24,000 nt of DNA from Leptolyngbyaceae cyanobacterium (lineage in GTDB: Bacteria > Cyanobacteriota > Cyanobacteriia > Phormidesmidales > Phormidesmidaceae): NCBI GenBank assembly GCA_050043365.1, contig JBHJIP010000110.1, positions 10,012 to 34,011 of the forward strand, written 5' to 3'. Within the stretch, counting starts at the first letter, position 1; each line of letters opens with the position of its first letter. A program made the translations under genes and the position numbers. Of the stretch, positions 3,058-22,799 are shown one piece after another. A model generated the notes under the pieces. It saw nothing but the letters and a program-made list of their open reading frames with translations. It did no database searches and was not told the DNA's origin.

Positions 3058-4137
3058 ATGACTACCGTTCTACAACGTCAAGATACGAACTTGTGGGAGA
3101 GCTTCTGTAATTGGGTTACCAGTACCGAGAATCGGCTCTATGTTGGCTGGTTCGGAGTTTTGATGATTCCTTTGCTAGGAGTTTCTATCACCGTTTTTGT
3201 ACTGGCCTTTATAGCTGCTCCCCCGGTCGATATTGATGGCATTCGGGAACCGCTTTCGGGCTCTTTGCTTTACGGCAACAACATCATTACCGCAGCAGTT
3301 GTACCCTCATCTAATGCGATCGGCCTTCATTTTTATGCGATTTGGGAAGCAGCCAGCCTAGATGAGTGGCTTTATAACGGCGGGCCGTACCAGATGATCG
3401 CCTTCCACTATATTCCGGCTTTACTGTGTTATGTGGGCCGAGAGTGGGAGCTGAGCTATCGCCTAGGTATGCGACCCTGGATCTGTGTGGCTTATTCTGC
3501 ACCAGTCGCGGCAACTAGCTCAGTATTTCTGATTTATCCCATTGGACAGGGCAGTTTCTCTGATGGCCTACCGATGGGGATTAGCGGAACCTTCAATTTT
3601 ATGTTCGTCTTCCAGGCTGAACATAATATTTTGATGCATCCGTTTCACATGCTAGGGGTTGCCGGGGTACTCGGAGGATCTCTGTTCTGTGCAATGCATG
3701 GCTCCTTGGTAACCTCAAGCCTGATTCGAGAGACCACTGAAACTCAGTCCCAAAATGATGGCTATAAGTTTGGCCAAGAGGAAGAAACCTACAACATTCT
3801 GGCAGCACACGGCTATTTTGGCCGTTTGATCTTTCAATATGCCAGCTTTAACAATTCTCGCTCGTTACACTTTTTCCTAGCCGCCTGGCCAGTCATTTGT
3901 ATCTGGTTTGTGGCACTAGGCATTAGCACAATGGCATTCAACCTCAATGGCTTCAACTTTAATCACTCGGTTTTGGATTCTCAGGGTCGAGTCTTGCCGA
4001 GTTGGGCCGATGTGCTCAACCGGGCCAATTTGGGCTTTGAGGTTTTGCATGAGCGGAATGCCCACAATTTCCCCCTAGATTTGGCGAGTGCACCGGCGAT
4101 TCCAGTAGCCTATCAAGTGTCTGAAGTTCAGGCTTGA
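3058..4137 (+). CDS. psbA3: Photosystem II D1 protein, far-red-light paralog (PsbA3-type)
   Basis: The 359-aa ORF aligns with D1 end to end. YZ (LIYPIGQG), D170 (GSFSDG), E189/H190 ([12 protein letters not shown]) and [13 protein letters not shown]|S (H332, E333, H337, D342, A344 plus the processing site) are all present. It differs from standard D1 at AFHYIPALL (F->Y) and PVAATSS (A->T), and it sits inside the FaRLiP cluster. Confidence 0.9.
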
Positions 4138-4556: not shown

Positions 4557-4716
4557 CTAGGGCTTGTGGACAATCAGCGGCGAAATCCTCTCTGGGTAAG
4601 CCTGACCACGCCCGCTCCGACAAATCAAGCTAGGAGCTGTAACCGTTGCACCCCTGAGATTCCAAACCGTGAATCTTAAACCCCAGTCGGAGATCTTGAC
4701 GCCGCCTGTGACTAGC
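4557..4716. repeat. MITE-like element, copy 1 (left arm conserved, right arm diverged or expanded)
   Basis: Positions 4557-4645 (CTAGGGCTTGTGGACAATCAGCGG...AATCAAGCTAGGAGCTGTAACC) align with 14043-14130 and 17318-17401 at roughly 80-85% by eye. A possible degenerate right end (TGTGACTAGCCCC) overlaps the stop codon of the ycf35-like gene. The right boundary is uncertain. Confidence 0.6.
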
Positions 4717-5095
4717 CCCAACGCTGCACTAATAGGCAAATAGAGCCGTCTTTGCGCTGTTGCTGATCAGCCACTTCAAACCCCCGCTGCGCGGTCTCAT
4801 GCAGGATGGTGTGGTAGGCATAGCGTTGGGTGATGAGCTGCAAAAACCCATCCACCGACAGGGGCTGCTGCCAGAACTGCAAATCCGACACCAGGGCATA
4901 TTCCTGACCATTCCAGGCGAAGCCGATATCATGCTGATTGGACTGTTCAATCACTAGATCAACGCTGCAGGTTTGGCCTTGATAACCTCTGACCTTGGCG
5001 GGGCCAGATTGCCATTCGATATCTAGATCCGTTAAAGCTAATTGCAGGACTTCCAGATTGCGCAGGCGAGTTTTGATGTGACTGAAGTGAGACAT
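4712..5095 (-). CDS. ycf35: Ycf35 / DUF1257-family protein
   Basis: The 127-aa ORF starts MSHFSHIKTRLRNLEVLQLALTDLDIEW and contains YQGQT...DIGFAWNG.EYALVSDLQFWQQPLSV...QRYAY. This matches the Ycf35/DUF1257 pattern as I recall it. Confidence 0.7.
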   Translation of the reverse strand: MSHFSHIKTRLRNLEVLQLALTDLDIEWQSGPAKVRGYQGQTCSVDLVIEQSNQHDIGFAWNGQEYALVSDLQFWQQPLSVDGFLQLITQRYAYHTILHETAQRGFEVADQQQRKDGSICLLVQRWG

Positions 5096-5342: not shown

Positions 5343-5564
5343 TTAATCTAAGTCAAATACCGGTGTCATATCGAACTCGTTTAACAGGATGGTGCCGTTG
5401 TAAAGCTGCAAAATAATCAGGATAAACAGCAGCAGTGCTACCAGCAGGGCAGCCATGATGGGGGTAGTACCCCAGCCCGGTGTAACTCGACCGGCCTCAG
5501 AATTAAAGGCTCGCAGGGCATATTGCAAAGGAGCTACTTTTTTAGAAACGTATTTTTGCTGCAT
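5343..5564 (-). CDS. psbH2: Photosystem II PsbH, far-red paralog
   Basis: The 73-aa ORF contains NSEAGRVTPGWGTTPIMAALLVALLLFILIILQLYN. Canonical PsbH has [36 protein letters not shown]. Confidence 0.9.
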   Translation of the reverse strand: MQQKYVSKKVAPLQYALRAFNSEAGRVTPGWGTTPIMAALLVALLLFILIILQLYNGTILLNEFDMTPVFDLD

Positions 5565-5779: not shown

Positions 5780-7312
5780 TCAAGTCGTGGGGGCTTGGCG
5801 AGTGGTGGGATCGCCGACCTTGCTGAAATAGCCCCACTCCACCTGTTCTGCGCTCAACTCTGGATCAATCCCCGAGAAGACATCTTGGAACAGGGCTCGC
5901 AGTCCGTGCCAGATATGGCCAAAGAACCAGACCAAAGCAAAACAGGCATGGAAAAAAGCGAAGAAGCCGCGATTGCTGGTGCGGATAGCACCGTCGGAGT
6001 TGTATACAGTGCGGTCAAACTCAAAGGGTTCGCCCAACTGCGCTTTGCGCGCATACTGCTTGACCTTTTGCGGTTCGGTAAAGGTCTGCCCATCGAGCTG
6101 GCCGCCGAAAAAGCTGACCGTTACGCCCGTTTGTTCAAATCCGTATTTGGCCTCCGATCGCCGGAACGGAATATCAGCTCGAACGATGCCCTGGCGATCA
6201 GTTAACACCACCGGGAAGTTTTCAAAGAAGTTAGGCATGCGCCTGACCTCTAGCTCCCGACCTTCTTTATCTTTAAAGATCGGGTGCCCCAGCCAGCCAG
6301 CGGCAAGGCCATCGCCATCAACCATGCGACCGACGCGGAACAACCCCCCTTTGGCTGGGCTATTGCCTACATAGTCGTAGAAGGCGAGCTTTTGCGGAAT
6401 GGCCGCCCAGGCATCCGTTAGGCTTTGCCCAGCAGCTTCAGCGGCATGGACGCGGCGCTCGATTTCTTCGTGAAAATAGCCCTTGTCCCAGTGGTAGCGG
6501 GTTGGTCCCCACAGCTCAATCGGGGTAGTGGCCGTGCCGTACCACATGGTCCCGGCGGCGATAAAGCCCCCGGCAAAGAAGACCGCCAGGCCACTGGCCA
6601 GAGCCCCTTCGATATTCCCCATGCGGAGGGCTTTATAGAGATATTCGGGCGGCCGCACCAGGATATGGAACAGCCCGCCAAGGATGGCTACGATGCCCGC
6701 CGCAATATGGTGGGCTACCACCCCGCCGGGATTTTGCGGATTGAAGCCAGCGGCACCCCATTCGGGGGCAACGCCTTGGATATGGCCCGTTAGTCCATAG
6801 GGGTCAGAGACCCACATGCCAGGACCAAAGACCCCGGTTAGGTGAAAGGCTCCAAAGCCGAAACACAGCAGCCCTGCCAGTAGTAAATGAATACCGAAGA
6901 CCTTAGGCAAGTCGATGATGGGCTCATCGGTTTTAGGATCGAAGAATGTGGCAACATCCCAGTACACCCAGTGCCAGCAGGCGGCTAGGAATTCTAAGCC
7001 GGAGAACACAATGTGGGCGATCGCGACGGTTTCAAACGTCCAAAAGCCGGGGTCGGTAAAGGTTTCACCCGTGATGCTCCAACCTTGCCAGGAGTTGGTG
7101 ACGCCCAGGCGAGCCACAAAGGGCATCAAAAAGCTCCCTTGCCGCCACATGGCATTGAGGACGGGGTCGGTGGGGTCGTAGCGCGCCAGCTCAAATAGCA
7201 GCATGGAGCCAGCAAATCCGGCGCATAGGGCATTGTGCATCAGATGCACCGCCAGCAGTCGGCCCGGATCGTTGAGGACAGAAGTATGGACGCGGTACCA
7301 AGGCAGTCCCAT
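5780..7312 (-). CDS. psbB2: Photosystem II CP47, far-red paralog
   Basis: Homology to PsbB runs from [10 protein letters not shown] to the C-terminus. The track ORF starts at 7342, but the conserved N-terminus begins at the ATG at 7312, which is preceded by AAGGAGAAG. This gives 510 aa. Confidence 0.92.
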
Positions 7313-7452
7313 CAGGGTCTTCTCCTTGCGTGAGGTGAACATTTAGAAAGGGTGAGACGGGTCAGGCATCCTCGACTGACACTTAGGTCAATGCCGACCC
7401 GTGACGGCGAACATGGCTCACCCATCTATCAAGACGGGTGGCAGGTCTGGCG

Positions 7453-8901
7453 CTAACGCAGACTGGGATCAATCGGCGGCATCGACAGCACTGGTTCGTT
7501 TTCGCGATCGAGGCCGGTTTCAAAGCCAGCAGCCGTGGCCCGAGCTCGGCCCGCGTGCCAGAGATGTCCCACTAAGAAAAAGAAGGCAAAGATAAAGTGG
7601 GCGGAGGCCAGCCAGGTCCGGGGGGAGACATAGTTAAAGGCATTCGTTTCAGTCGCCAGCCCTGCCACCGAGTTCAGAGAACCGATCGGGGCATGGGTCA
7701 TGTATTCCGCCGCTTGCCGTAACTGCCAGGGTTGAATATCGTGCCTGATTTTTTCCAGATCCAGGCCATTGGAGCCTCGCAACGGTTCTAACCAAGGGGC
7801 ACGAGTCGACCAAAAGCGCATGGTTTCACCGCCGAAAATGATTTCTCCCGTGGGCGATCGCTGCAAGTATTTACCGAGGCCGGTCGGCCCCTGAGCCGAC
7901 GCCACCTCAGCCCCCAGATTTTGGTCGCGGGCTAAAAATACCAGCGATTGGGCCTGGGAAGCTTCGGGCACTGTCGGCCCATAGAACACGCTGGGATAAG
8001 CGGTATTGCTAAACCAGATAAAGGCGGTGGCGATAAAGGCTTGACCGGCGACATTGCCCAAACTCTGAGAGAGGTACGTCTCGCCTGTCCAGGGATAGAG
8101 GTTATCGGTCCAGCGCAGGGGCGGCACGAGAATGTGCCAGATGCCCCCAATCACCAGCAAGCTACCAATCCAAATATGACCGCCGATAACATCTTCTAAG
8201 TTATTGACGCCGACAATCCAGCCACTACCGCCAGTGGGCAGGCGCAGCAGGTAGCCAAAAATAATGCGGGGGTCGAGGGTGGGGCTCGTGATCAGTCGCA
8301 CGTCGCCGCCCCCCGGTGCCCAGGGGTCATACAGCCCGCCCCAAAACATCGCTTTGCAGACAAACAGCAGGGCAAAGATCCCCAACATGAGGATATGGAA
8401 GCCGAGAATCTGAGCGACCTTGGCGCGATCGGTCCAGTCAAACTCAAAAAAGCCCGAGAGTTTCTCGGGACCTTTGATGGTGTGATAAATACCACCCGCG
8501 CCTAGGACGGCAGAGCCAATCAGGTGGGCAACCCCAATGGCGAAAAAGGGAAAAATATTAGTGACCGCCCCCCCTTGACCGACCCCAAAGCCCAGGGTCG
8601 CAATGTGGGGCATGAGAATGCAGCCCTGCTCATACATCGGTTTAGACAGGTTGTAATGAGACACCTCAAACAAGAGCATGCCACCTGCCCAAAAGGCGAT
8701 CAGGCCCGCATGGGCGATGTGGGCTCCGAGAAACCGTCCGGTTAACTCAGGGGTAATGAACCGGGCATTTCCCGCCCACCAGGCAAACCCACTGGACTCT
8801 TCGTCGTAGCCAGGGCTGGCCGGGGCCAAGATGGAGCCTTCTTCAGCCAGCGATCGACTCGCTGGCGAGATATCGGGAATCGTTTCGATCGGTGTTTCCA
8901 T
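7453..8901 (-). CDS. psbC2: Photosystem II CP43, far-red paralog
   Basis: The 482-aa ORF contains [11 protein letters not shown]...[21 protein letters not shown]...[21 protein letters not shown]. An in-frame TAA two codons upstream of the ATG fixes the start, so there is no overlap with psbD3. Confidence 0.92.
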
Positions 8902-8983: not shown

Positions 8984-10042
8984 TTACTGCGAAAAACCTC
9001 GGGGCAGCACTTCTTCCGGGAAGACAAACTTCTTGGCGGGCTGATCCATCTCTGCCATCCAGGCCCGCACCCCTTCATTGAGCAAGACATTCTTGGTGTA
9101 GAACGTCTCGAATTCGGGGTCTTGGGCGGCGCGAAGCTCCTGACTGACAAAGTCATAGGCCCGCAAGTTGAATGACAATCCCACCATGCCAATGGCGCTC
9201 ATCCACAGTCCGGTAACGGGCACAAACAGCATGAAGAAGTGCAGCCAGCGCTTGTTAGAAAAGGCAATGCCGAAAATTTGTGACCAAAAGCGATTGGCAG
9301 TCACCATGGAATAGGTCTCTTCGGCCTGGGCCGTGGAAAAGCCCTTGAAGGTGTTTTTGCCCGTCGAATCTTTGAACAGGGTATTTTGCACGGTCGCCCC
9401 GTGGATGGCACAGAGCAGCGCTGCCCCCAACACGCCCGTCACCCCCATCATGTGAAAGGGATTGAGCGTGTAATTGTGAAACCCCTGGAAAAACAGTAGG
9501 AATCGAAAAATAGCGGTGACACCAAAGCTGGGGGCAAAAAACCAACCAGATTGGCCCAAGGGATACATCAGAAACGTGGCGACATAGACAGCGATGGGGG
9601 CCGAAAAGGCGATCGCGTTATAGGGGCGCAGCCCAACCAGACGAGCCACCTCAATTTGCCGCAGCATAAAGCCGATCAGGGCAAAGACACCGTGAAAGGC
9701 GGTGAAATTCCACAGGCCGCCAATTTGACACCAGCGAATAAAGTCGCCATTGGCTTCAGGCCCCCACAGCAGCAGTAGAGAATGGCCTATGCTCTCGGCT
9801 GGGGTCGAGACAGCAACCGTTAAAAAGTTGCAGCCTTCGATATAAGAGCTGACTAGGCCGTGGGTGTACCAAGATGTGACAAAGGTCGTGCCGGTAAACC
9901 AAGCCCCGATCGCCAAGTAAGCACAGGGAAAGAGCAACAGTCCTGACCAGCCGATAAACACGAAGCGATCGCGCTTGAGCCAGTCATCGAGTTCACCCAC
10001 CCAGCTGCGGGCTGGTTTCAGGGCTCCTACCGAAATCGTCAT
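8984..10042 (-). CDS. psbD3: Photosystem II D2, far-red paralog
   Basis: The 352-aa ORF contains [24 protein letters not shown]...[23 protein letters not shown]...FPEEVLPRG. It aligns with D2 over its full length. Confidence 0.92.
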
Positions 10043-10130: not shown

Positions 10131-10664
10131 CTAAGCCACGGAATCGCTTTCGCCGGGGCCATCGTTCATGAAATAGGGCGCGCCGGGTAGCGCCAACACC
10201 TGAATGATTTGGTCAAAATAGGGGATGATCGCCTCGGCATCAGCCGCTTCGAGCTGGGTGATCGCCTCCGCTTTCAGGCAGCGCATGTACTGCAAGATGT
10301 TGGTCAGGGGAATGCCAATGTTGGTGTACAGCTCTTTCATGCCCACAAGGCCAATTTCTCGGAGGGGGCGATCGTCGCCCGCCAGCAGGCAGTAGCTAAT
10401 CAAGCGCACGAACCACCCCATATCCCGCTTAGCCGCTGCGGTCTTACGACGATTACCGCTATTGCTCGGGGTGCGAGGGCAAATTCGCCAAAACTGGCGG
10501 GTGCCTTGCTCCACGATGGTTTCGGCTTTCTGCTCTAAGGTTTGAGCCAATCGCACGCGATCGGTGCCCGTTTTGCAGAACGTGCGAATCATCCGCAGCT
10601 CTCCGGGGGTGGGGTAGCGCTGCTCTTCATCGGCGTTGAGAATCACCTGTTTCACAATGCTCAT
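10131..10664 (-). CDS. apcD3: Far-red allophycocyanin alpha-type subunit (ApcD3 by gene order), lacking the canonical bilin-binding Cys
   Basis: The 177-aa ORF has the AP alpha fold pattern (MSIVKQVILNADEEQRYPTPGEL...). It shares the motif W-R-x-CP-x-TPSNS with the other two alpha paralogs here. The site aligned to Cys81 reads AAAKRDMGW, against SCLRDQGW and SCQRDQGW in the paralogs. It also has a ~18-aa C-terminal extension. Confidence 0.85.
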   Translation of the reverse strand: MSIVKQVILNADEEQRYPTPGELRMIRTFCKTGTDRVRLAQTLEQKAETIVEQGTRQFWRICPRTPSNSGNRRKTAAAKRDMGWFVRLISYCLLAGDDRPLREIGLVGMKELYTNIGIPLTNILQYMRCLKAEAITQLEAADAEAIIPYFDQIIQVLALPGAPYFMNDGPGESDSVA

Positions 10665-10939: not shown

Positions 10940-13348
10940 TTAAGAGGGCGTGCTGACTTCTGTTGGCGTCGTGACTGCTGGTGTTACCGCTGCGGCCTCG
11001 CCATTATTGACACTGGGCGGCGGGTCTGGGGCAGCGACGGCAGGCGGGGGCTCTTGAACGGCCACAGTGCTGGTCGCGGCTGGCTCAGTGCTGGCTGCAG
11101 CTGGCTCAGTGCTGGCTGCAGCTGGTTCAGTGCTGGCTGCGGCTGGCTCAGTGCTGAGATTGCGGCCATTATGGTTACTGGCGGCGTGAGCCTGGGCGAT
11201 CGCTTGTTTGGCGTAGGTTTGCAGCCATTCCCCCGCGATCGCGGGCGCTTCCCTCGGTTTGAACCAGCCACCGGGGCCTTGGGGCGATCTCTGGGCGTAG
11301 CCCTGGGGCGTCAGGTAGCGCTCATAGGGGACCCCCATGTCGCCAAAGGCGTCGCGGTATTCGGCACTGTCGATCAACGCATCGACCAAGGCATAAAAGC
11401 CTTGGCGAGCGCAGAGGTCGTAGTACCGGGCCATTTCCCGGCGATCGCGGGTTGGGCGACCCAGCAAGCGCCGGTGAATGTATTCGATCGCTTTGGTGAC
11501 ATACAGCGTTTCCCAAGCGAGCTGGCGGAACGGGCGCGATTTGGCCAACTGCCGCACAAATTCCCGCAGCGTGATATTGCCTGCCTTCAGTTGGGTCTCG
11601 ATCGTCCGCTGCCGCTGACCATCCCACACCGCTCGACCAAAGACCTGGCGATAGGTCGCCTCAATCACTGCTTCGCGGGAGTGGCGGGTCAGACTAAAGC
11701 TGGTCTGGTGGCGATCGTCCCCAGCGCTGCCGTTCAATCCGTTCGGGGAGACAACCGCTTCCCACCGCAGCCGATGATGAGCCATGGAGCCGGGGGCGCG
11801 GCCGAGGTGGGCGGCAGGGCGATCAGCCGGGCCGTTGGTCGCACCGTTGCTGATCAGAATCCGGCGGCTGTCTTCGCTAAAGTGAGCGGGCTGCGCTTGC
11901 GGGTCGCGCGTCTCCTGCGGAAAGATCGCCCCAAACTGAATTTCTAACGGATCATTGCCCGCCCCGTAGGGATGCTGATTGGGCAGCGGTTGCTGATAGC
12001 CACTAAAGGTGGTGACGAACTGCGGCACTTTGCGCACCGGGGCACTGTATTTGAACAGCTCCAACTGGGGACCCCAGTTACGGCATTCCTGCGCTTCTAG
12101 CCCTAAACCCCGGAGGTAGGGTACTGTCTCTTCGCCAAAGTAGTCGGCATATTCTGGCGAGTCGATAAAGTCATCCACCAAGGCGGGAAATCCGTGGTCA
12201 GAGATGACGTCAAAGTACTTTTGAAACTCTTCTAGGCAGCTCAACCCGCGCCCCAAGAAGTGACGGCAGGCCAGTTCAATACTGCGGCTGATGCTGTAGG
12301 GCTCATAGTAAAGTTGCCGATACAGCCGGGATTTGCCCAACTGCCGGATAAACTCTTTCATCGTCCCCAGACCGCCTTTGACCTGGGAGACCGACGCGGT
12401 TAATTGAGGACCGTAAAGATCGGTGACATCCCGCTCAAACACTTGCCGATAGGCGGCGCGCACGACATCATCCTTTTCGATATCGGGCAAATCTGCTTTC
12501 ATCACCCAGCGAGGCCGGGGGCTGGCACTATCGCGATAGCTTTGGGGTAAGGGCAAACCAGCATGGTGTTGGGACACCCCTAACCGCAGTTGCGGGTCGG
12601 GCTTTTCGACCCCATAGTCTTCAATCAACACGTCGAAGTAGCGTCCCACGAGCGCCGCTGCTGCCCCGCCTTTCGGAAAGTAGGTCTGGGCTTTCCACTG
12701 CATTTCTCGCAGCGCGACGAGGGTCGCCACGGTGACATCTTCGGGAATGACCCCCCGTAGCCCCCGCGTATTGACGCTAATAATGCTGGTATCGCCCGCC
12801 ACGATCGCATAGGTGACATAACGTAAAAACCAGCTCAGGTCCCGCAGCGATCGCTTCATGCGCACCGGGCCGTAGCGGGCAATGTCGATTGTTCGAAATC
12901 GACTGGGTACCGAGGGTTTGCCCCCCGAAAATGTCCCTTTAAGCCAATCCACCAGCGGGTTCGAAGCTTCGACAAAGCGCGGGCGATCGCGATTGCTGGC
13001 CTGCTCTTTTTTCTGCCGGGTCACCGCCGAGAGGTAGTCTTCGGCAATGAAGTAATCAGAGCCCGGTAAGCCCAACGGCTCCTCGGGTTTCTCTAGGTAG
13101 GCCATTGGGTTACCGCCCACAAAGATGCGGTTAGCCCCTGCCGCCACAATGCGATCGGCATATTGAGTCAGGGTTTGAGCAATGGCCAGTCGCTGTAGCC
13201 CAGTGCCAAAAAAACCTAACAGTTCTTGGCCTTCACCCCGGCTTAGATAGCGATCGCGCTGCATCGCTTCCGTAATGACGGCGGTCGGCACCGTGTGATA
13301 CTGCTGCGGCTGGACAACTGGACTGCCTCCGTTCATCCGATCAGTCAT
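10940..13348 (-). CDS. apcE2: Far-red phycobilisome core-membrane linker ApcE2 (two REP/linker domains)
   Basis: The 802-aa ORF has an N-terminal phycobiliprotein-like domain with a loop insertion (RSLRDLSWFLRYVTYAIVAGD). It has exactly two PBS-linker REP domains (AAYRQVFERDV... and ATYRQVFGRAV...). There is no Cys anywhere in the first ~250 aa. The C-terminus is a repeat-containing Pro/Ala/Thr tail. Confidence 0.9.
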   Translation of the reverse strand: MTDRMNGGSPVVQPQQYHTVPTAVITEAMQRDRYLSRGEGQELLGFFGTGLQRLAIAQTLTQYADRIVAAGANRIFVGGNPMAYLEKPEEPLGLPGSDYFIAEDYLSAVTRQKKEQASNRDRPRFVEASNPLVDWLKGTFSGGKPSVPSRFRTIDIARYGPVRMKRSLRDLSWFLRYVTYAIVAGDTSIISVNTRGLRGVIPEDVTVATLVALREMQWKAQTYFPKGGAAAALVGRYFDVLIEDYGVEKPDPQLRLGVSQHHAGLPLPQSYRDSASPRPRWVMKADLPDIEKDDVVRAAYRQVFERDVTDLYGPQLTASVSQVKGGLGTMKEFIRQLGKSRLYRQLYYEPYSISRSIELACRHFLGRGLSCLEEFQKYFDVISDHGFPALVDDFIDSPEYADYFGEETVPYLRGLGLEAQECRNWGPQLELFKYSAPVRKVPQFVTTFSGYQQPLPNQHPYGAGNDPLEIQFGAIFPQETRDPQAQPAHFSEDSRRILISNGATNGPADRPAAHLGRAPGSMAHHRLRWEAVVSPNGLNGSAGDDRHQTSFSLTRHSREAVIEATYRQVFGRAVWDGQRQRTIETQLKAGNITLREFVRQLAKSRPFRQLAWETLYVTKAIEYIHRRLLGRPTRDRREMARYYDLCARQGFYALVDALIDSAEYRDAFGDMGVPYERYLTPQGYAQRSPQGPGGWFKPREAPAIAGEWLQTYAKQAIAQAHAASNHNGRNLSTEPAAASTEPAAASTEPAAASTEPAATSTVAVQEPPPAVAAPDPPPSVNNGEAAAVTPAVTTPTEVSTPS
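11075..11158. repeat. 21-bp tandem repeat (about 4 units) inside the apcE2 3' end
   Basis: GCTGGCTCAGTGCTGGCTGCA is repeated head to tail with 1-2 substitutions per unit. On the minus strand it encodes (S)TEPAAA x4. Confidence 0.9.
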
Positions 13349-14042: not shown

Positions 14043-14171
14043 CTAGAGCGTGTGGACAATGAACGGTGAAATCCTTGTGGGATAAGCATGGTCACGCCCG
14101 CCCCACTGAATCAAGCTAGGGCTGTAACCACCTTTTGGTGAGGTGTCTGACTGTGATTGCACAGCCCCTAG
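14043..14171. repeat. MITE-like element, copy 2, in the apcB2-apcD2 spacer
   Basis: The 129-bp element runs from CTAGAGCGTGTGGACAAT to ATTGCACAGCCCCTAG (terminal inverted repeats). Its interior is homologous to copies 1 and 3. Confidence 0.75.
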
Positions 14172-15118: not shown

Positions 15119-15595
15119 CTACGACAAAGAGTTGATAATCAAATCGAAATAAGGAGCAACCTCTTGAGCATCTTCATCACTCATGAGGGTCATCGCTTCC
15201 TGTTTTAGACAACGCATACATTCGGCAATGTTGCGAATGGGAATTTCTAAGTTGTTGTACATTTCCTTAATGCCAACGGTGCCGATTTCTTCTAGGGGGC
15301 GCTCACTGCCCGCCAGAATGGAGTAAGCAATCAGGCGCACATACCAGCCTTGATCCCGCTGACAAGAATTGGTCTTGCGATCTACACCACTATTACTGGG
15401 CGTATTGGGACAACGCTCCCAAAATTTTTGACTTCCGTTTTGGACGATACGCTGTTCATTCTCGGCTAAAGTTTTAGCAATTCGAATTCGCTGTTCTCCA
15501 GTTTTGACAAAATCCTGAAAAATTCTCAGTTCCTTAGGTGCAGGATAACGGGCCTCACTATCAGCACTGAGGATCAATTCCGTAACTAAACTCAT
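15119..15595 (-). CDS. apcD5: Far-red allophycocyanin alpha-type subunit (ApcD5/ApcA2 by gene order)
   Basis: The 158-aa ORF starts MSLVTELILSADSEARYPAPKEL and contains WERCPNTPSNS and NSCQRDQGWYVRLIAYSILAGS. It is the first gene of the apc operon and is visibly more AT-rich than its neighbours. Confidence 0.85.
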   Translation of the reverse strand: MSLVTELILSADSEARYPAPKELRIFQDFVKTGEQRIRIAKTLAENEQRIVQNGSQKFWERCPNTPSNSGVDRKTNSCQRDQGWYVRLIAYSILAGSERPLEEIGTVGIKEMYNNLEIPIRNIAECMRCLKQEAMTLMSDEDAQEVAPYFDLIINSLS

Positions 15596-16490
15596 GACTC
15601 AATGATCTCCGAATTAATGCAAATCACAGAAGAGATTTTGTTTTCTGGATTCAATTAGGAGAGTAGGTAAAAAAAATGAAGAACTTATGAAAGGCCAAAA
15701 ACCGCTTAAAGAAACTTTGTAACGCACTTTAACAAAGATAGCCTTCATCAGTTCTTTAGATTTAGCTGCTTTAATGCGATTTGCATGCTGGCCTAGGCTG
15801 GCGAGATTTAAGGCTTCTCCTAAAGATGTGCCGCAAGGCCAATGAGTAGACAATTTACTCAAGCCGGAGATGTATTTGCTGGTTTATTTGCATGCCGCAA
15901 GATAATGGTGTGTTCAACTTATTTCATGATTTAAGTGCAGGCATTTCTGCCAGTTATCTAGATATAAATCATCAGTAGTTAAGCACCAATAACGGTAAGT
16001 GCGGAATGTTTTAGAGGCGTTGGTTCAGCCTGTCTTTAAAGTCATTATCTTGCATTGATATGGACTGTACTAGGCTGCTCTATTCGACTCAAATTACCCA
16101 TGGTTAAGATGATTTACTTGGCCGCTCTTCGATGCTAAATCAGTAGTAATCATGTAGAAAAACCCAGGAAGCCTTATATAAGGATGCCCTTTCTTTCAGT
16201 TTTCAGAGTGCAAAAAAATGAAGGGACAGAAGAATAAACTGAGTTTGATCCTCGTCTTCATGATCATCTTTGTCAGCCTGTGGACATTTTTGATCAACGA
16301 TTCACAGACAAAGAATGCAATACTAAAGTATCAGGAGCTAAAAGAGCAGAGCAGCTTTGTTCAGATCTGATAATCGATCTGAACCCAAGCCCAGTCTTCT
16401 GGAAGTCAGATTATTCCAAAATTCAAGAAAGATTAATTTCCCTCTGTTTTGGAGTAGAGAGTCGTTTGGAAAGTGAGTTCATAAAAAGCT

Positions 16491-17321
16491 ATGAAATACC
16501 GTTCTCTAATAGCCTTCTTTTTAGCAATTTTTTTGGGTTTCCTGACAGCTTGTAGCAGCAGTCCCACCGCAGGAAATGACGCTTTGAGTTATGACGACAT
16601 TCGAGGTAGTGGGCTAGCCAACAATTGCCCGGAAATATCGGAATCGAGTCTCGATTCGATCAAGATAGCTACTGGCCAGTCTTATCAACTCAAAGAACTG
16701 TGTTTAGAACCCAAAACCTTTTTGGTGAAGCGATCTCCCCGCATCAAACGACAGAATAGTCAGTTTGAACTCACCAAACCCTTAACTCGAGAAAGTTTCA
16801 CCCTTGATCAGGTGAGTGGTTCGCTCAAGGCTGACTCTAACGGCATGCTGACCTTTAGCGAGCAGGGGGGCTTTGATTTTCAGCCGGTGACGGTACAGCT
16901 CCCCGATGGTGAACGGGTGCCACTGTTATTCACCATCAAGGGATTAGTGGCTCAAAATCAAGATTCCTCCGGTCGTCTCAGCACCTCTAGTCGTTTGGTC
17001 GGTACGTTTGATGTGCCGCCTTATCGCACCTCAAGTTTTATTGATCCTAAAGGGCGTGGTCTGTCGATGGGCTACGATGCGGCCGTCGGGCTACCCGTCA
17101 ATGCTGACAGTGAAGAATATGCTCGCCCGAACACAAAGGTATTTGATATTGACCAAGGGACCATTTCCTTGCAGATTAACCGGGTCAACCAAGCAACGGG
17201 CGAAGTTGCCGGTTTGTTTGAGAGCGCACAACCTTCGGATACTGACTTTGGTTCCAAAGAAGTTATGGACGTCAAAATTCAAGGCCACTTTTATGGTCGC
17301 ATTGAACCGGAAACCATCTAG
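16491..17321 (+). CDS. psbO: PsbO (manganese-stabilising protein) paralog with lipoprotein-type signal peptide
   Basis: The 276-aa ORF contains LSYDDIRGSGLANNCPE...ELCLEPKTFLVK...FDFQPVTVQLPDGERVPLLFTIKGLVA...FDVPPYRTSSFIDPKGRG...VKIQGHFYGRIEP, collinear with PsbO. The N-terminus MKYRSLIAFFLAIFLGFLTAC has a lipobox (L-T-A-C). Confidence 0.88.
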   Translation: MKYRSLIAFFLAIFLGFLTACSSSPTAGNDALSYDDIRGSGLANNCPEISESSLDSIKIATGQSYQLKELCLEPKTFLVKRSPRIKRQNSQFELTKPLTRESFTLDQVSGSLKADSNGMLTFSEQGGFDFQPVTVQLPDGERVPLLFTIKGLVAQNQDSSGRLSTSSRLVGTFDVPPYRTSSFIDPKGRGLSMGYDAAVGLPVNADSEEYARPNTKVFDIDQGTISLQINRVNQATGEVAGLFESAQPSDTDFGSKEVMDVKIQGHFYGRIEPETI

Positions 17322-17445
17322 GGCGTGTGGACAATCAACGGCAAAACCCTGACTGGGTAGGCATGAGCCCGTTCTAATGAATCAAGCTAGGGGCTGTAAC
17401 CGCCTTGCGGCAAGGAACCTAGCTTTAATTGTCCACAGCCCCTAG
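17318..17445. repeat. MITE-like element, copy 3 (best preserved)
   Basis: The 128-bp element has 18-bp terminal inverted repeats, CTAGGGCGTGTGGACAAT and ATTGTCCACAGCCCCTAG, with 2 mismatches. An internal copy of the TIR core (CTAGGGGCTGT) and an internal hairpin (AAGCTAGG...CCTAGCTT) are present. Its first bases supply the psbO-paralog TAG stop codon. Confidence 0.8.
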
Positions 17446-17586
17446 TTGAGTTTGGCGGGAATAGACCAACTATGGACAGCCCACTCCCCTTACATTCACC
17501 GGCGCTGTTGTTTCTGACAGCGCCCCCAGATAAGCCAACTGCTGTCGCAGTCCATTAGACATTCATTCAACAATAAGACTACAACC

Positions 17587-17721
17587 ATGACGAATGTAAA
17601 TCGTTCATCTGAGATTAACTATCCGATTTTCACTGTTAGGTGGCTAGCGGTACATACCCTAGCGATTCCTACCGTGTTCTTTCTTGGTGCGATCGCGGCG
17701 ATGCAGTTTATTCAGCGCTAA
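17587..17721 (+). CDS. psbF: Cytochrome b559 beta subunit (PsbF) paralog, not in the ORF track
   Basis: My translation is [44 protein letters not shown] (44 aa). Canonical PsbF reads ...[33 protein letters not shown]. The heme-ligand His is retained. No psbE, psbL or psbJ is adjacent. Confidence 0.88.
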
Positions 17722-17733
17722 TGCGGTAAACAC

Positions 17734-17771
17734 AATCAGCCCCCAGAATTTGTAAATCCTGGGGGCTGATT
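17734..17771. terminator. Bidirectional terminator hairpin between convergent psbF and psbV paralogs
   Basis: A 12-bp perfect stem, AATCAGCCCCCA / TGGGGGCTGATT, has a 14-nt loop and AT-rich flanks on both sides. Confidence 0.6.
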
Positions 17772-17778
17772 ATAGAAA

Positions 17779-18291
17779 TTATCGTTTGGGTTTCCCTCCG
17801 GCCCACTGATCTCCAACGATTTTAGGTTGCACCAAAATGTGCCCGGCAATCGCGGTCAGGTCATCTTTGCTTAGGTCACGCATCTTAGGAAATAGATCCG
17901 TTCGTTGAGTCGAGGGATGGAATTTCGACAGGTCTTGTAAGCCGTCATAGGTCGTGGGATTTTCCAGATAATCGACGATGCTGGCAACAGTGTTGCGCGG
18001 CGGCGTTGCCAAGGCTAAACTTCCGGGGCTTAAATCAACGATAGGGTTGGTTTTAGTCACGCCATCTAAGTGGCACGAGGCACAGCTACCGTTAAATTTA
18101 CGTTGACCAATTGCTAACTGGTTGGTCGTCAAAGTTGTTTGTCTGCCTTCGGCATTTAAAGGAATAGTGCGGGTCACTTTATCGATAGAAGCCGCCATCG
18201 CGACGCCTGTCCAAAAGGTTATTGCAATCATTCCTGCGCAGAGTGGAAGAATAAAATATCTAGCCACTATTTTTTTCGAAGTATAAAGCAT
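17779..18291 (-). CDS. psbV: Cytochrome c-550 (PsbV) paralog
   Basis: The 170-aa ORF has a signal peptide ending AMA|AS. It contains TIPLNAEG...CASCH (heme CxxCH)...TKTNP..DL...LALATPPRN...VDYLENPTTYDG...FHPS (distal His)...LFPKMRDLSKDDLTAIAGHILVQPKIVGDQW. Confidence 0.88.
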   Translation of the reverse strand: MLYTSKKIVARYFILPLCAGMIAITFWTGVAMAASIDKVTRTIPLNAEGRQTTLTTNQLAIGQRKFNGSCASCHLDGVTKTNPIVDLSPGSLALATPPRNTVASIVDYLENPTTYDGLQDLSKFHPSTQRTDLFPKMRDLSKDDLTAIAGHILVQPKIVGDQWAGGKPKR

Positions 18292-19109
18292 TTCTTCTCC
18301 TTAAAGCAGTTTATCAACAGCATAAAAATATCATAATTTATTGAGCTAAAAATCATTTGCATAGATTTTCTTGAAATTTGAATTTAGAATCTGTCAGCGC
18401 TGAATTTCTAAAGATTAAAAAAGCAAAAATTAAGACTAATAGACCTAAAGAGGTCGAGTCATTAACGGGTGGCGGAATGCTAAGCCGACTATCTATGAAA
18501 ACTACAGAATAAGGACCCGGTCGCTATCGGTCTATTCAAAGCCTGTAGGGAAGAGAGCTTTGCTCCGCCTGGGAGGCTGTTTAAAAAGGGGATTGGCTGA
18601 AGCCTTGATGCTACCGCTGCCTATTTTGGGTGATCCATGTAGCGAAACGAGATCCAGAGAACTTTTCAAATAGCCTCTGAACTGATTGGCTCGTAGAGCT
18701 TTCAGCAGCTTATATGACTTGAGTCTTGCTGCGTTTAGCTATATTAGTGTGAATTTTTAAGCGAGTTCTGATGAATTCTGGGGGAATCAGCCCATTGTGC
18801 GGTGGCGGCGAAAAGGAAGCCAAGAAAACGCTTACACAGCTTAAAAAGCAACGATATCTGCTGATGCCTGTAACTTTTCCTAAAGTGAAAGGTGGCCTTC
18901 ATTAGTTCTTCATTTTTTCTCTTTAGTCTTGCTTCATCAATTGAGAGAACACCATTACAGAAAGCCGTTAAAGCTTCTGGTCTAAATGGGGTTGTTTCGG
19001 TTGGGGACTCTTCATGATTTCCCATGCCAATAGGCAAGTTTTGTGCTGCTCTTTTGGAGCAGTATAAGCAGATTTTGGCATTCAAAAACGTGATTTTAGG
19101 AGCTTTAAG

Positions 19110-20321
19110 ATGACACAGTTTGGTAGAGCGATCGCCCTTGATCGTCCTGACCAACTAAAAGGCTTGCCCAACTCGAGCAGACCTTTAGATGAAGTTACGT
19201 CAGTTCCTTCCAGACCTGCTGACGAAACGTTGGCAACCCCCAAGGTTCATCCTTGGGAACGTTTTTGTCGTTGGGTGACGAGTACTGAAAACCGTATTTA
19301 TATCGGTTGGTTTGGGATCTTGATGATTCCCACCTTGTCGACTGCTGCGATTGTTTTTGTGCTGGCGTTTGTGCTAGCTCCGGCGGTGGATATTAACGGC
19401 ACTGGGCACCTAATGTCGGGGTCACTACTCGACGGCAATAACCTAATCACGGCGGCGGTTGTGCCGACTTCTCCGGCAGTGGGTCTACACTTTTATCCCC
19501 TTTGGGAAGCCGCGTCTCTTAATGAATGGTTGGTTAACGGCGGACCTTACCAACTCATCGTGCTGCACTTTTTGATTGGCATCATTGCCTACCAAGATCG
19601 GGAATGGGAGCTGAGCTACCGTCTGGGCATGCGTCCGTGGATCTCGCTGGCCTTCACCGCACCGGTTGCGGCGGCCTTTTCAGTGCTGCTGATTTACCCA
19701 ATCGGGCAAGGTGGTTTCTCCTCAGGCATGCCTTTGGGGATCTCTGGTACGTTCACGTTCATGTTGCAGTTTCAGGCCGATCACAATATCCTGGCCAACC
19801 CACTGCATCAGGTAGGGGTGATTGGCGTGTTTGGGGGGTCTCTGTTGTGTGCCGCCCACGGCTCTTTGGTGACCTCTGCCCTGCTTCGCCAGCCTGAGGG
19901 TGACAAGCTCACCTCGTTTCGCAAACCACGCTGGGCTAGGACGCCTATCCCCGCCTACAGCTTTGAGCACATTCAAGCCAATCAGCAAAAGGTGCTGTGG
20001 CCAGGGGCCAGCTTTCGGTCCTCGAGATCGCTGCACTTCTTTTTAGCGGCCTTTCCGGTAGCAGGCATTTGGTCTGCGGCTATGGGCATTGATATGGCAG
20101 CCTTTGGCTTCGATCAGGTGGGGAACAGTCCGGTGGGGTCGAGCTATGGCCAAAAAGCCGTTGTTCCTACTTGGGCCGACGTCGTCACTCAGGCCAATCA
20201 GGGAATTCGTGCCCTCGCTGTAGAAGAAACCACGACCTTTCCTGAGTCTTTAACTGTTGCTGACGCTCCAGAACTGCTCGTGCCGCTCTCATCGCGCCAG
20301 TCACCGGCCCCACCTTCATAG
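19110..20321 (+). CDS. chlF: Chlorophyll f synthase ChlF (super-rogue D1, PsbA4)
   Basis: The 403-aa ORF has a D1 scaffold ([42 protein letters not shown]). The OEC ligands are lost: D170->S (GGFSSG), E189->D (QADHNIL), and the C-terminal [13 protein letters not shown] motif is absent. The QD motif is present ([10 protein letters not shown], against [10 protein letters not shown] in D1). AGGAG lies 8 nt upstream of the ATG, and there is a ~35-aa N-terminal extension. Confidence 0.88.
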
Positions 20322-20441
20322 CGCTTCGCTATCGGGCCGTTTTTTCTTGACCGCCGTAATGCCTCGCCTGACGTCATTTACCTCTTGATTTGCGGGGCTG
20401 TCATTATCAACTTTTTTGTTTAGCAAATGTGGGAGGTTTTA

Positions 20442-22799
20442 ATGACCAAGAGTCCTCCAAAGCAGAGGCAACCGGTTCAGGTCAATGTCGATCAAAATCC
20501 GGTCCCTACCTCCTTTGAGAAGTGGGCCAAGCCGGGCCATTTTGATCGCACTCTGGCCCGAGGTCCCAAAACCACGACCTGGATTTGGAACCTCCATGCC
20601 GATGCCCATGACTTTGATAGCCATACCAGTGATTTAGAAGATGTTTCTCGCAAAATCTTCTCGGCTCACTTTGGACACCTGGCAATCATCTTTATCTGGC
20701 TGAGCGGCATGCATTTTCATGGCGCGAGATTTTCTAACTTTTCGGCTTGGATGGCCGACCCAACCAACATTAAGCCTAGTGCCCAAATCGTCTGGCCGCT
20801 CGTCGGTCAGGAGATTTTGAACGCCGATGTCGGTGGCGGCTTCCAGGGCATTCAAATTACCTCTGGCCTGTTTCAAATGTGGCGGGGACAAGGGTTCACC
20901 CATGAGTTCCAGCTTTTTTGGACGGCGATGGGTGCCTTGGTGATGGCCGCAATCATGCTGTTTGCGGGCTGGTTTCACTATCACATGAGAGCCCCCAAGC
21001 TAGAGTGGTTCCGCAATTGGGAATCGATGATGAACCATCACCTGGCTGGGCTGCTGGGGCTGGGCAGTTTGGGTTGGGCGGGTCACTTAATCCATGTGGC
21101 GGTGCCAACCAATCGGCTGATGGATGCAGGGGTATTGCCGCAAAACGTGCCGTTGCCCCACGAGTTTATTCTCGATAAGAGCCTGATGGTAGAGCTATTT
21201 CCCAGCTTTGCCCAGGGTGTGAAGCCGTTTTTCACCTTAAATTGGTCGGCCTATACCGATTTTCTCACCTTTAGGGGGGGGCTAAATCCGGTAACGGGCG
21301 GGCTGTGGATGACCGATATTGCCCACCACCACGTGGCGATCTCCGTCCTGTTTATCATTGCGGGTCATTTTTACCGCACCAACTGGTGCATTGGCCATAG
21401 TTTTCGCGAACTGTTGGATGATGCCCGCACGCCCAAGATGTTCCCCTTGTTCAATTTCATTGGGCCAGTGGGGCACCGGGGGCTCGACAAGATCTTTGAG
21501 ACGTCGTGGCACGCCAATCTCGCCATTCACCTGGTTCAATTTGGCACGGCCAGCCTGCTAGTGGCCCATCATATGTATGTGATGCCGCCCTATCCTTACC
21601 TGGCCACTGACTATGCCACGGTGACCTCGCTGTTTACCCACCATGTGTGGATTGCTGGATTCTGCATTGTCGGCGGGGCGGCCCATGCCGGGATCTTCCT
21701 AGTGCGGGACTATAACCCCGCTGATCACGTCAACAACGTGCTGGATCGGGTGCTGCGTCACCGCGACGCTATCATTTCTCACCTGGTTTGGGTCTGCCAG
21801 TTCTTAGGCTTCCACAGCTTTGCCATGTACTGTCACAACGACACCATGCGAGCCTTTGGTCGCCCGCAGGACATGTTTTCCGATACGGGGATTCAGCTCC
21901 AGCCGGTGTTTGCCCAGTGGATTCAGCACATCCACACCATAGCCATCAATAACCCAGCAGTGCAGGCGGCTCAGCCGTTAGGCGATGTGTTCGGCGGGGC
22001 GCGCAACATCGACTTGGTCGGCTTGGGGACAACAGTGCCCGGCATCATGAACCCCATCAGCCATGCCTTTGGCGGTGGAGTCGTGGCAGTCGGCGGCAAG
22101 GTGGCGATGATGCCCATCCAACTCGGGACTGCTGATTTCCTGATTCACCACATCCATGCCTTCACCATTCACGTGACGGTGTTGGTGCTGCTCAAGGGGG
22201 TGCTGTTCTCCCGCAATTCGCGCTTGATTCCTGACAAGGGTAAGTTGGGTTTTCGCTTCCCCTGCGATGGCCCCGGTCGCGGTGGCACCTGCCAAGTTTC
22301 CGCTTGGGATCATGTCTTTCTGGGGCTGTTCTGGATGTATAACTGCCTGTCGATTGTGATTTTCCACTTCTTTTGGAAGATGCAGTCAGACGTGTGGGGC
22401 ACGGTGAATGCCGACGGCACGATCTCCCATATCACCGCTGGCAATTTTGCCCAATCATCCATTACCAATAATGGCTGGCTGCGCGACTTTCTCTGGTCCC
22501 AGGCGTCGCAGGTGATTGGCTCCTACGGGTCGGCACTATCTGCCTATGGTCTGCTCTTCTTGGCAGGGCACTTCGTCTTTGGGTTCAGCTTGATGTTCTT
22601 GTTCAGTGGTCGCGGCTACTGGCAAGAGCTGATTGAGTCTATCGTGTGGGCCCACAACAAACTGCGAATCACGACGGTGATGCAACCCCGTGCGCTGAGT
22701 AGCACCCTAGGCCGCGCGGTGGGAGTAGCCCATTATCTCTTGGGCGGTATTGTCACTACCTGGGCCTTTTTCCTAGCCCGCATGGCGGCAGTGGGGTAG
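20442..22799 (+). CDS. psaA2: Photosystem I P700 apoprotein A1, far-red paralog
   Basis: PsaA homology is full length, including the FX motif [15 protein letters not shown] and the C-terminus [25 protein letters not shown]. The track ORF starts at 20427, but GGGAGG at 20431-20436 fits the ATG at 20442 (MTKSPP...). Confidence 0.9.

Follow-up and report, generated by a model that had tools for sequence, protein, structure and literature searches.

The far-red light photoacclimation (FaRLiP) clusters of some cyanobacteria are known to be accompanied by extra copies of the photosystem II (PSII) genes psbO, psbF and psbV. In Halomicronema hongdechloris, the FaRLiP cluster (XM38_010770-010970) contains an extra psbO (XM38_010880) and psbV, the functions of which were regarded as unknown (Chen et al. 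2019, PMC6416890); far-red light raises the PsbO and PsbV encoded in the cluster, and second copies reside elsewhere in the genome (PMC6416890). Synechococcus 7335 possesses an operon, psbO1-psbF2-nblA-psbV, in which the psbF duplication was judged to be recent and unique (Gisriel et al. 2021, PMC8689208), and both of its PsbF proteins were found in the apo form of far-red-light PSII (apo-FRL-PSII; PMC8689208). PsbO1, PsbF2 and PsbV1 are the more abundant isoforms and were modelled in the FRL-PSII dimer 8EQM (Gisriel et al. 2022, PMC9843442), the corresponding genes being placed outside the FaRLiP cluster by the authors (PMC9843442). Each of the two species has two psbO and two psbV (PMC8689208, PMC9843442, PMC6416890). 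Lastly, psbO2, psbV2 and psbF2 were listed as accessory FaRLiP genes of Nodosilineales (Antonaru et al., bioRxiv 10.1101/2024.05.15.594131, Table S8), which places psbO2 upstream of apc and psbV2 upstream of chlF, both reversed, with psbF2 in the space between them. The same table separates them from the white-light paralogs and documents far-red-preferential expression for all but psbF2; psbV2 accompanies psbO2 in 20 of 23 clusters, and psbF2 occurs in 14 of 20 (10.1101/2024.05.15.594131). Here, we describe a psbO2-psbF2-psbV2 module in a 24,000-nucleotide stretch of a Leptolyngbyaceae cyanobacterium (contig JBHJIP010000110.1, positions 10,012 to 34,011), hereafter "the window".

The module occupies positions 16491-18291 and comprises psbO2 (16491-17321, plus strand; 276 aa; Pfam MSP, E=1.2e-98), psbF2 (17587-17721, plus strand; 44 aa; Pfam Cytochrom_B559, E=1.4e-16) and psbV2 (17779-18291, minus strand; 170 aa; Pfam Cytochrom_C550, E=4.2e-50). 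The gene content was taken from an open reading frame (ORF) listing and Pfam scans, in which all three genes scored far above the curated cut-offs, confirming the identities and coordinates proposed in a first-pass annotation of this DNA. The flanking genes on both sides are FaRLiP genes. We conclude that psbO2, psbF2 and psbV2 most probably encode accessory far-red (FaRLiP) PSII subunits. The module is conserved in the Nodosilineales/Halomicronema/Phormidesmis-like lineage, at the boundary between the apc-PSII and the chlF-photosystem I (PSI) portions of the cluster. As such genes were described by Chen et al. (2019), Gisriel et al. (2021, 2022) and Table S8 of the preprint, the finding is already known, and the window provides a further example of a documented module, not a new principle. 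The first-pass annotation had allowed that annotated clusters might list such genes, and this caveat proved well placed (PMC6416890, PMC8689208, PMC9843442, Table S8).

The first-pass annotation had proposed a survey of FaRLiP clusters for syntenic psbO, psbF and psbV paralogs. With the PsbO protein as query, a genome scan yielded 28 loci, to which exact-protein look-up contributed Synechococcus 7335 and three others; their genes were mapped by tblastn/blastp. Isolates in which the module is present include Oscillatoria sp. CS-180, Leptolyngbya cf. ectocarpi LEGE 11479, Vasconcelosia minhoensis LEGE 07310, and Nodosilinea sp. P-1105 and LEGE 07088. Some 30 loci presented the same arrangement, namely apc genes on the minus strand followed by psbO (+), psbF (+), an optional nblA (+) and psbV. 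The psbV gene is convergent, with chlF-psaA-psaB behind it, in the window and 14 other loci, while in 8 loci (Phormidesmis-like, Synechococcus 7335 and L034) psbV is co-directional and the module lies at the edge of the cluster. These eight (L014, L017, L018, L023, L025, L028, L031 and L034) have no chlF within 5 kb and yet keep the module beside apc, indicating that the linkage is with the apc/PSII side and not with chlF. psbV was found in nearly all loci and psbF in 22 of the 28 readable ones; since psbF is truly absent from the other 6, it is dispensable to the module. These frequencies are similar to the ones given in Table S8 (10.1101/2024.05.15.594131). Wherever psbF2 occurs, its neighbours are psbO2 and psbV2, and the wide synteny shows that the psbF duplication is old and lineage-wide.

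A fourth gene frequently accompanies the three. An NblA-like ORF resides between psbF and psbV in 17 of the 28 loci (for instance, L031 7059-7280, L034 5889-6119 and L004 7035-7211), and Pfam NblA matches are on record for two of these loci. NblA is a family of phycobilisome degradation proteins, and the paralog may aid the removal of white-light phycobilisomes during far-red acclimation. The window has no nblA paralog, nor any remnant detectable by tblastn, and 10 other loci are likewise without the gene; the paralog is a common fourth member of the module that has been lost in the window and these 10 loci.

We placed PsbO2 and PsbV2 in Kimura-distance neighbour-joining trees (unbootstrapped), which comprised the best 120 database homologs and the locus-derived proteins. 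All of the cluster-linked PsbO fell into one clade (92 of 148 tips), as did all of the cluster-linked PsbV (79 of 138 tips). We traced three further members of the PsbO clade, all on long contigs, to their genomic surroundings, which were FaRLiP clusters in each case; indeed, every PsbO or PsbV of the module clades with a readable genomic context sits in such a cluster. Synechococcus 7335 and H. hongdechloris each have one PsbO in the module clade. Judged by these separate clades and by the diagnostic residues described below, psbO2 and psbV2 appear to be distinct from the standard paralogs. The first-pass annotation had treated the genes as paralogs belonging to the far-red cluster as opposed to housekeeping genes located there by chance, and both the clades and the uniformly FaRLiP contexts bear this out. 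All three genes are under purifying selection at about 0.09-0.11: the ratio of nonsynonymous to synonymous divergence (dN/dS) against the related locus L001 was 0.11 for psbO2 and 0.09 for psbV2, and the pN/pS of psbF2 was 0.09 over 231 pairs.

PsbO2 aligned with Pfam PF01716 (MSP) at 329.6 bits (cut-off, 25), and its residues 31-271 span profile positions 2-242 of 242. Its signal peptide terminates in LTAC, and the cysteines in LANNCP and KELCLEP match the consensus of the comparison set; this conserved pair forms a disulfide in PsbO. The best PDB match was 8eqm_O, which is PsbO1 in the FRL-PSII of Synechococcus 7335 (351 bits). PsbO2 differs from the sampled outgroup by a few conservative residues, on which we build no interpretation.

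PsbF2 scored 60 bits against Pfam PF00283 (cut-off, 30), and its second-best PDB match was 7sa3_F/8eqm_F. The haem-ligating histidine (RWLAVH), the helix and the C-terminal AAMQFIQR are all present, the histidine and QFIQR being conserved in 22 loci. Variation is confined to the N-terminal 10 residues, and the helix is almost identical to that of standard PsbF; the protein is too short and too conserved to be separated from the standard paralogs by sequence. The first-pass annotation had suggested that the haem environment of cytochrome b559 is remodelled. This part was not supported: PsbF2 retains the haem ligand and a near-standard helix, and gives no indication of a changed haem site. The same annotation had described psbF2 as an orphan, and here our results agree: tblastn gave no signal for psbE, psbL or psbJ anywhere in the window, and psbF2 is detached from psbEFLJ. 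A tblastn of the 265-bp psbO2-psbF2 spacer and the rest of the window likewise gave no trace of a decayed psbE or nblA. An intact psbF2 was left uncalled by gene finders both in the ENA record of the window scaffold and in the Logan copy of Synechococcus 7335; short accessory genes of this kind are under-annotated.

PsbV2 carries a Sec signal peptide, a CASCH haem motif, the distal histidine in FHPS (HPS is present in 136 of the 138 PsbV aligned) and the C-terminus GGKPKR. It matched PsbV entries in the PDB at up to E=8.5e-53, and the cytochrome c550-like protein of Thermosynechococcus elongatus (4LJI) at E=4.7e-16 over 83 residues. The PsbV of the module clade have lengths of 169-176 aa, compared with 163 aa in the other sequences, and the 7-13 extra residues are mostly in the signal peptide. 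The most prominent difference is at the C-terminus: all 79 module-clade PsbV end in K-P/S/A-x-R, and 53 of 59 outgroup PsbV carry an aromatic pair (such as IYY, IYF or IFY; mostly K-I-Y-Y), which is missing from PsbV2. We treat this pair as a conserved trait of standard PsbV and not as a formal criterion of the family. Around the haem, module PsbV read GQRKF...C(A/S/V)xCH(L/I)(D/E)G as compared with GKRLF...CGQCHVGG in the outgroup. In T. vulcanus numbering, Gln takes the place of Lys30, Lys of Leu32, Asp of Gly43, Lys/Asn/Arg of Tyr136 and Arg of Tyr137, and the C-terminal and Lys30/Leu32 changes are invariant across the module clade. No compensating change was seen near PsbV Tyr137 in the window far-red D1, where His304, Asp319, Asn322, Arg323 and Glu329 (reference numbering) are all conserved.

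These positions have been characterised in standard PSII. Molecular dynamics identified PsbV Tyr137 as a conformational gate of the E3/E4 branches of the O1 water channel (PMC9732884); the residue may help protons to leave YZ, and it matters for the stable binding of PsbV (PMC9732884). The C-termini of PsbF (Arg45) and PsbJ (Leu40) share a salt-bridge cluster with Lys30 (PMC9732884). Because PsbV2 has lost the C-terminal Tyr-Tyr and has its lysine shifted, it is likely to affect the O1 channel, the proton exit from YZ and the strength with which the cap binds. A remodelled lumenal cap, through the PsbV2 C-terminus and the residues in contact with PsbF and PsbJ, is therefore plausible. The C-terminal and Lys30/Leu32 changes go unmentioned in the portions of the FaRLiP literature on this module available to us.

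The spacers within and around the module were analysed for regulatory elements. As the first-pass annotation had stated, psbV2 is convergent to psbO2 and psbF2, and a single hairpin lies in the gap. The hairpin (17734-17771, in the 57-bp convergent gap) has arms of 18 nt (17734-17751 and 17754-17771) that are 94% complementary, and folds at -29 kcal/mol on the plus strand (z -5.4) and -32.5 kcal/mol on the minus strand (z -8.3), with none of 200 shuffled sequences as stable. Its U-tract is weak on the minus strand and absent on the plus strand, and a consensus promoter/terminator scan, which returned fewer sites than in shuffled sequence, left the hairpin uncalled. Eleven related loci have hairpins at the same gap, several of them flanked by an A-run and a T-run, as is typical of bidirectional terminators, so that it is reasonable to regard the 17734-17771 hairpin as a probable bidirectional terminator. 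On the other side of psbF2, the spacer to psbO2 measures 265 bp, compared with 30-50 bp in most relatives, and about half of it is a repeat resembling a miniature inverted-repeat transposable element (MITE). This MITE-like repeat (17315-17448; ~130 nt), found by an inverted-repeat search (I1, I4), carries CTAGGGCGTGTGGACAATCA ... TGATTGTCCACAGCCCCTAG as terminal inverted repeats; it overlaps the stop codon of psbO2, and its folding energy is -55.8 kcal/mol (z -2.9). Two further copies occur in the window at 4561-4645 and 14048-14171, and all three are in intergenic spacers of the cluster.

Upstream of psbV2, on the minus strand, we noticed a putative promoter with the extended -10-like sequence TGATATTTT (18333-18325), which is kept in most of 14 convergent-type loci, and a putative upstream box, TTTCAAGAAA (18376-18367), 76-85 nt upstream of the gene. 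A TTCAAGAAA-type box precedes psbV2 in seven loci (the window and six others) against a background of 0.055 per kb, and TTCAAGAAA also occurs 69 nt upstream of psbO2 (16422-16430), in the window only. The -10-like sequence and the upstream box would act together as the psbV2 promoter, and psbO2 and psbV2 may have TTCAAGAAA/TTTCAAGAAA in common as a promoter element other than the FaRLiP motif. That motif was described in a long form upstream of apc and a short form upstream of psbO (Antonaru et al., bioRxiv 10.1101/2024.05.15.594131). An alignment of the apc-psbO intergenic regions brought out, in two divergent copies, a T-rich element (core, TTCATnrGTTCTyCAkTTTTTT) which corresponds to the motif of the 2024 preprint. 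Scanning the window by nhmmer with a profile from 12 loci, we detected a strong copy facing the apc operon (15665-15693, minus strand; E=1.1e-4, 20.9 bits), a weak copy facing psbO2 (15742-15761, plus strand; E=0.26, 10.2 bits) and a copy upstream of chlF (18895-18921, plus strand; E=5.9e-4, 18.6 bits). The psbO-side copy is ~730 bp upstream of the psbO2 ATG, compared with 100-125 bp in compact relatives.

A small ORF starting in a conserved ATG block upstream of psbO2 was rejected, as a stop follows after 4 codons in all loci; the block consists of the two divergent motif copies. Between the psbO-side motif and psbO2 lie ~700 bp of extra sequence (15762-16490) with no match in related loci. 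A 50-aa ORF is located there (16218-16370); it is annotated as a gene in the public record, and a single hydrophobic helix is predicted in its product. The apc-psbO spacer is similarly enlarged in L001, L005 and L009. An Rfam scan of 15500-19200 returned one snoRNA match at chance level and nothing else.

If the three genes are genuinely accessory FaRLiP genes, the following scheme can be proposed. Under far-red light, the cap proteins PsbO2 and PsbV2 and a dedicated b559 beta subunit would be made beside the far-red D1, D2, CP47, CP43 and PsbH. psbO2 and psbF2 are probably co-transcribed, and psbV2, in the convergent arrangement, would be under its own promoter and share the hairpin terminator with psbF2. 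PsbF2 would pair with the ordinary PsbE and bind the b haem, while PsbO2 and PsbV2, once in the lumen, would attach to the far-red core above the Mn4CaO5 cluster. The component most divergent from its standard counterpart is PsbV2, having lost Tyr-Tyr in favour of a K-P-x-R end and having its lysine shifted at the PsbF/PsbJ contact site. The sequence analysis itself establishes the identity of the genes, their conservation and selection, the clade structure and the synteny; far-red induction in a relative and the occurrence of the orthologs in FRL-PSII come from the literature; far-red regulation in the window organism, and any effect on channels or redox properties, are what we infer. The finding bears out what is already documented, namely that far-red acclimation in one early-branching lineage swaps the lumenal cap (PsbO and PsbV) and the b559 beta subunit beside the chlorophyll-binding core.

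Several observations weigh against this interpretation. The differences of PsbO from the comparison set are subtle, and certain module-type PsbO residues are shared with Thermosynechococcus PsbO. In the nhmmer profile scan of the window, no FaRLiP motif was found facing psbV2, and the psbO-side motif is both degenerate and 730 bp distant. Any benefit of the module genes is optional, as other FaRLiP lineages manage without psbO2, psbF2 and psbV2. From the literature, the two psbF genes of Synechococcus 7335 were reported to be unmodulated by FaRLiP (PMC8689208), and the extrinsic subunits in 8EQM are at low occupancy, with unreliable coordinates (PMC9843442).

A more ambitious version of the interpretation can be put forward, albeit on balance a doubtful one. 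psbO-psbF-nblA-psbV may form a co-evolved unit, from which nblA was lost in the window, and its PsbV may redesign the O1-channel/YZ proton gate throughout the lineage. The redesign would consist of the replacement of Tyr136-Tyr137 by basic residues, the relocation of Lys30 by two positions and an acidic residue two positions after the haem histidine. If this is true, the far-red PSII of these cyanobacteria tunes its donor-side handling of protons and water, or the binding of its cap, to far-red photons with their lower energy. That Tyr137 is invariably lost from PsbV offers a testable handle on whether the donor-side water/proton channels in far-red PSII are tuned.

Among the competing explanations, the one that fares best, although we consider it unlikely, is a housekeeping role: the lineage would use these genes in all light as its principal or sole psbO and psbV, and they would merely be linked to the FaRLiP cluster. 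It draws on the weak and distant psbO-side motif in the window, on the location of the Synechococcus 7335 module at the margin of the cluster, with hfq, dapF and surE as neighbours, on the presence of a single PsbV and a single PsbO of that strain among the best 120 homologs, and on its reportedly unmodulated psbF genes (PMC8689208). Housekeeping use is nevertheless difficult to reconcile with the second psbO and psbV in both H. hongdechloris and Synechococcus 7335, with the rise of the H. hongdechloris cluster copies in far-red light (PMC6416890), with the occurrence of the module clade, as far as found, in FaRLiP contexts only, and with the separation of the module genes from white-light paralogs in Table S8 (10.1101/2024.05.15.594131).

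It is more improbable still that PsbF2 is not a b559 beta subunit but occupies a second single-helix site in far-red PSII or its assembly intermediates, or serves as a membrane anchor with PsbV2. This idea arises from an unassigned single helix in apo-FRL-PSII, for which a PsbF paralog was proposed, psbF2 being encoded just upstream of psbV (PMC8689208); besides, the C-terminus of standard PsbF touches PsbV Lys30 (PMC9732884), a residue altered in the module clade. Against it, PsbF2 keeps the haem histidine and a near-canonical helix and is absent from 6 of 28 loci, and the 7SA3 and 8EQM models place PsbF2 at the b559 site, the extra helix being absent from the dimer (PMC8689208, PMC9843442). 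The remaining proposal, raised in the first-pass annotation, is that the module works for the complex of ChlF, the chlorophyll f synthase, instead of water-splitting FRL-PSII. In its favour, psbV2 is divergent from chlF in the window and 14 other loci, but we regard it as the least probable of all: the module adjoins apc in the 8 loci described above, none of which has chlF within 5 kb; neither a FaRLiP nor a chlF motif is oriented towards psbV2; an O2-evolving-type FRL-PSII dimer, which has a Mn cluster, contained the orthologous proteins (PMC9843442); and the window ChlF has no Mn-ligand C-terminus, a motif that would form part of the donor-side surface capped by the extrinsic proteins.

The remainder of the window, which lies on scaffold_230 (35.7 kb) of a public metagenome assembly (a metagenome-assembled genome; ENA ERZ23488003), is largely occupied by the other cluster genes. 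A far-red D1 gene (psbA3; 3058-4137, plus strand), the best PDB match of which is the far-red D1 of 8EQM, is followed on the minus strand by psbH2 (~5379-5560), psbB (5780-7342), psbC (7453-8901), psbD for the far-red D2 (8984-10042), a phycobiliprotein gene (10131-10664), apcE (10940-13348) and three further phycobiliprotein genes ending at 15595. A DUF1257 gene (4712-5095, minus strand; E=1e-40) resides inside the cluster, between the far-red psbA and psbH2/psbB. Beyond the module, on the plus strand, are the gene for the ChlF-like Photo_RC protein, which is without the D1 C-terminal Mn-ligand motif (19110-20321), psaA (20427-22799) and the start of psaB. At the cluster edge, just beyond the far-red D1 gene, two genes unrelated to photosynthesis encode a 460-aa TIR-domain protein (532-1914; TIR_2, E=3e-27, with a weak ThsB_TIR match) and a YccF-family membrane protein (2345-2740).

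Two side observations concern these neighbours. The far-red D2 in the window ends in ...LPRGFSQ, the standard C-terminus being ...LPRGNAL. In standard PSII, the D2 C-terminal carboxylate touches PsbV Lys134 and PsbU (PMC9732884). Divergence from L001 is mosaic: identity is 88-97% for psbO2, the apc genes and psaA, but only 72% for psbV2 (dS 2.3, compared with 0.53 for psbO2) and 74% for chlF, and psbV2 together with the psbV2-chlF spacer is nearer to L009 than to L001. This pattern suggests recombination or replacement of the psbV2-chlF segment.

How, then, does the window compare with the systems described before? The distinctness of the module from the standard genes does not lie in folds or cofactor ligands, which are the same in standard psbEFLJ, PsbO and PsbV, and its psbF stands apart from psbE, psbL and psbJ. 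The name psbV2 is shared with the c550-like protein of Thermosynechococcus (4LJI), which is likewise a second gene of the c550 family. The names coincide by chance: the window protein is a different one, which has a far better match to true PsbV and keeps the distal histidine. In H. hongdechloris, psbO lies between the apc genes and chlF as in the window, and its PsbO (P0064) falls into the module clade. The two PsbO are, however, only 59% identical, and no psbF was reported in that species; its closest related locus, L033, is without psbF2. The Synechococcus 7335 module is orthologous to that of the window, and its PsbV1 also terminates in GGKPKR. It differs in having psbV co-directional, nblA between psbF and psbV, and chlF not adjacent. 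Except for the start chosen, P0062 and the PsbO chain of 8EQM have the same sequence, and the P0062 gene, which is followed by psbF, nblA and psbV, directly adjoins the FaRLiP apc genes of Synechococcus 7335; consequently, the extrinsic subunits of the only FRL-PSII holo-structure belong to the module. The closest correspondence is with the module of Antonaru et al., from which the window differs in nothing essential, the genes, their position and their orientation being the same. The window departs from it in the 265-bp psbO2-psbF2 spacer with its MITE-like repeat and in the ~700 bp of extra sequence before psbO2, and the nblA paralog, present in 17 of the 28 loci compared here, goes unmentioned in the available part of the 2024 preprint.

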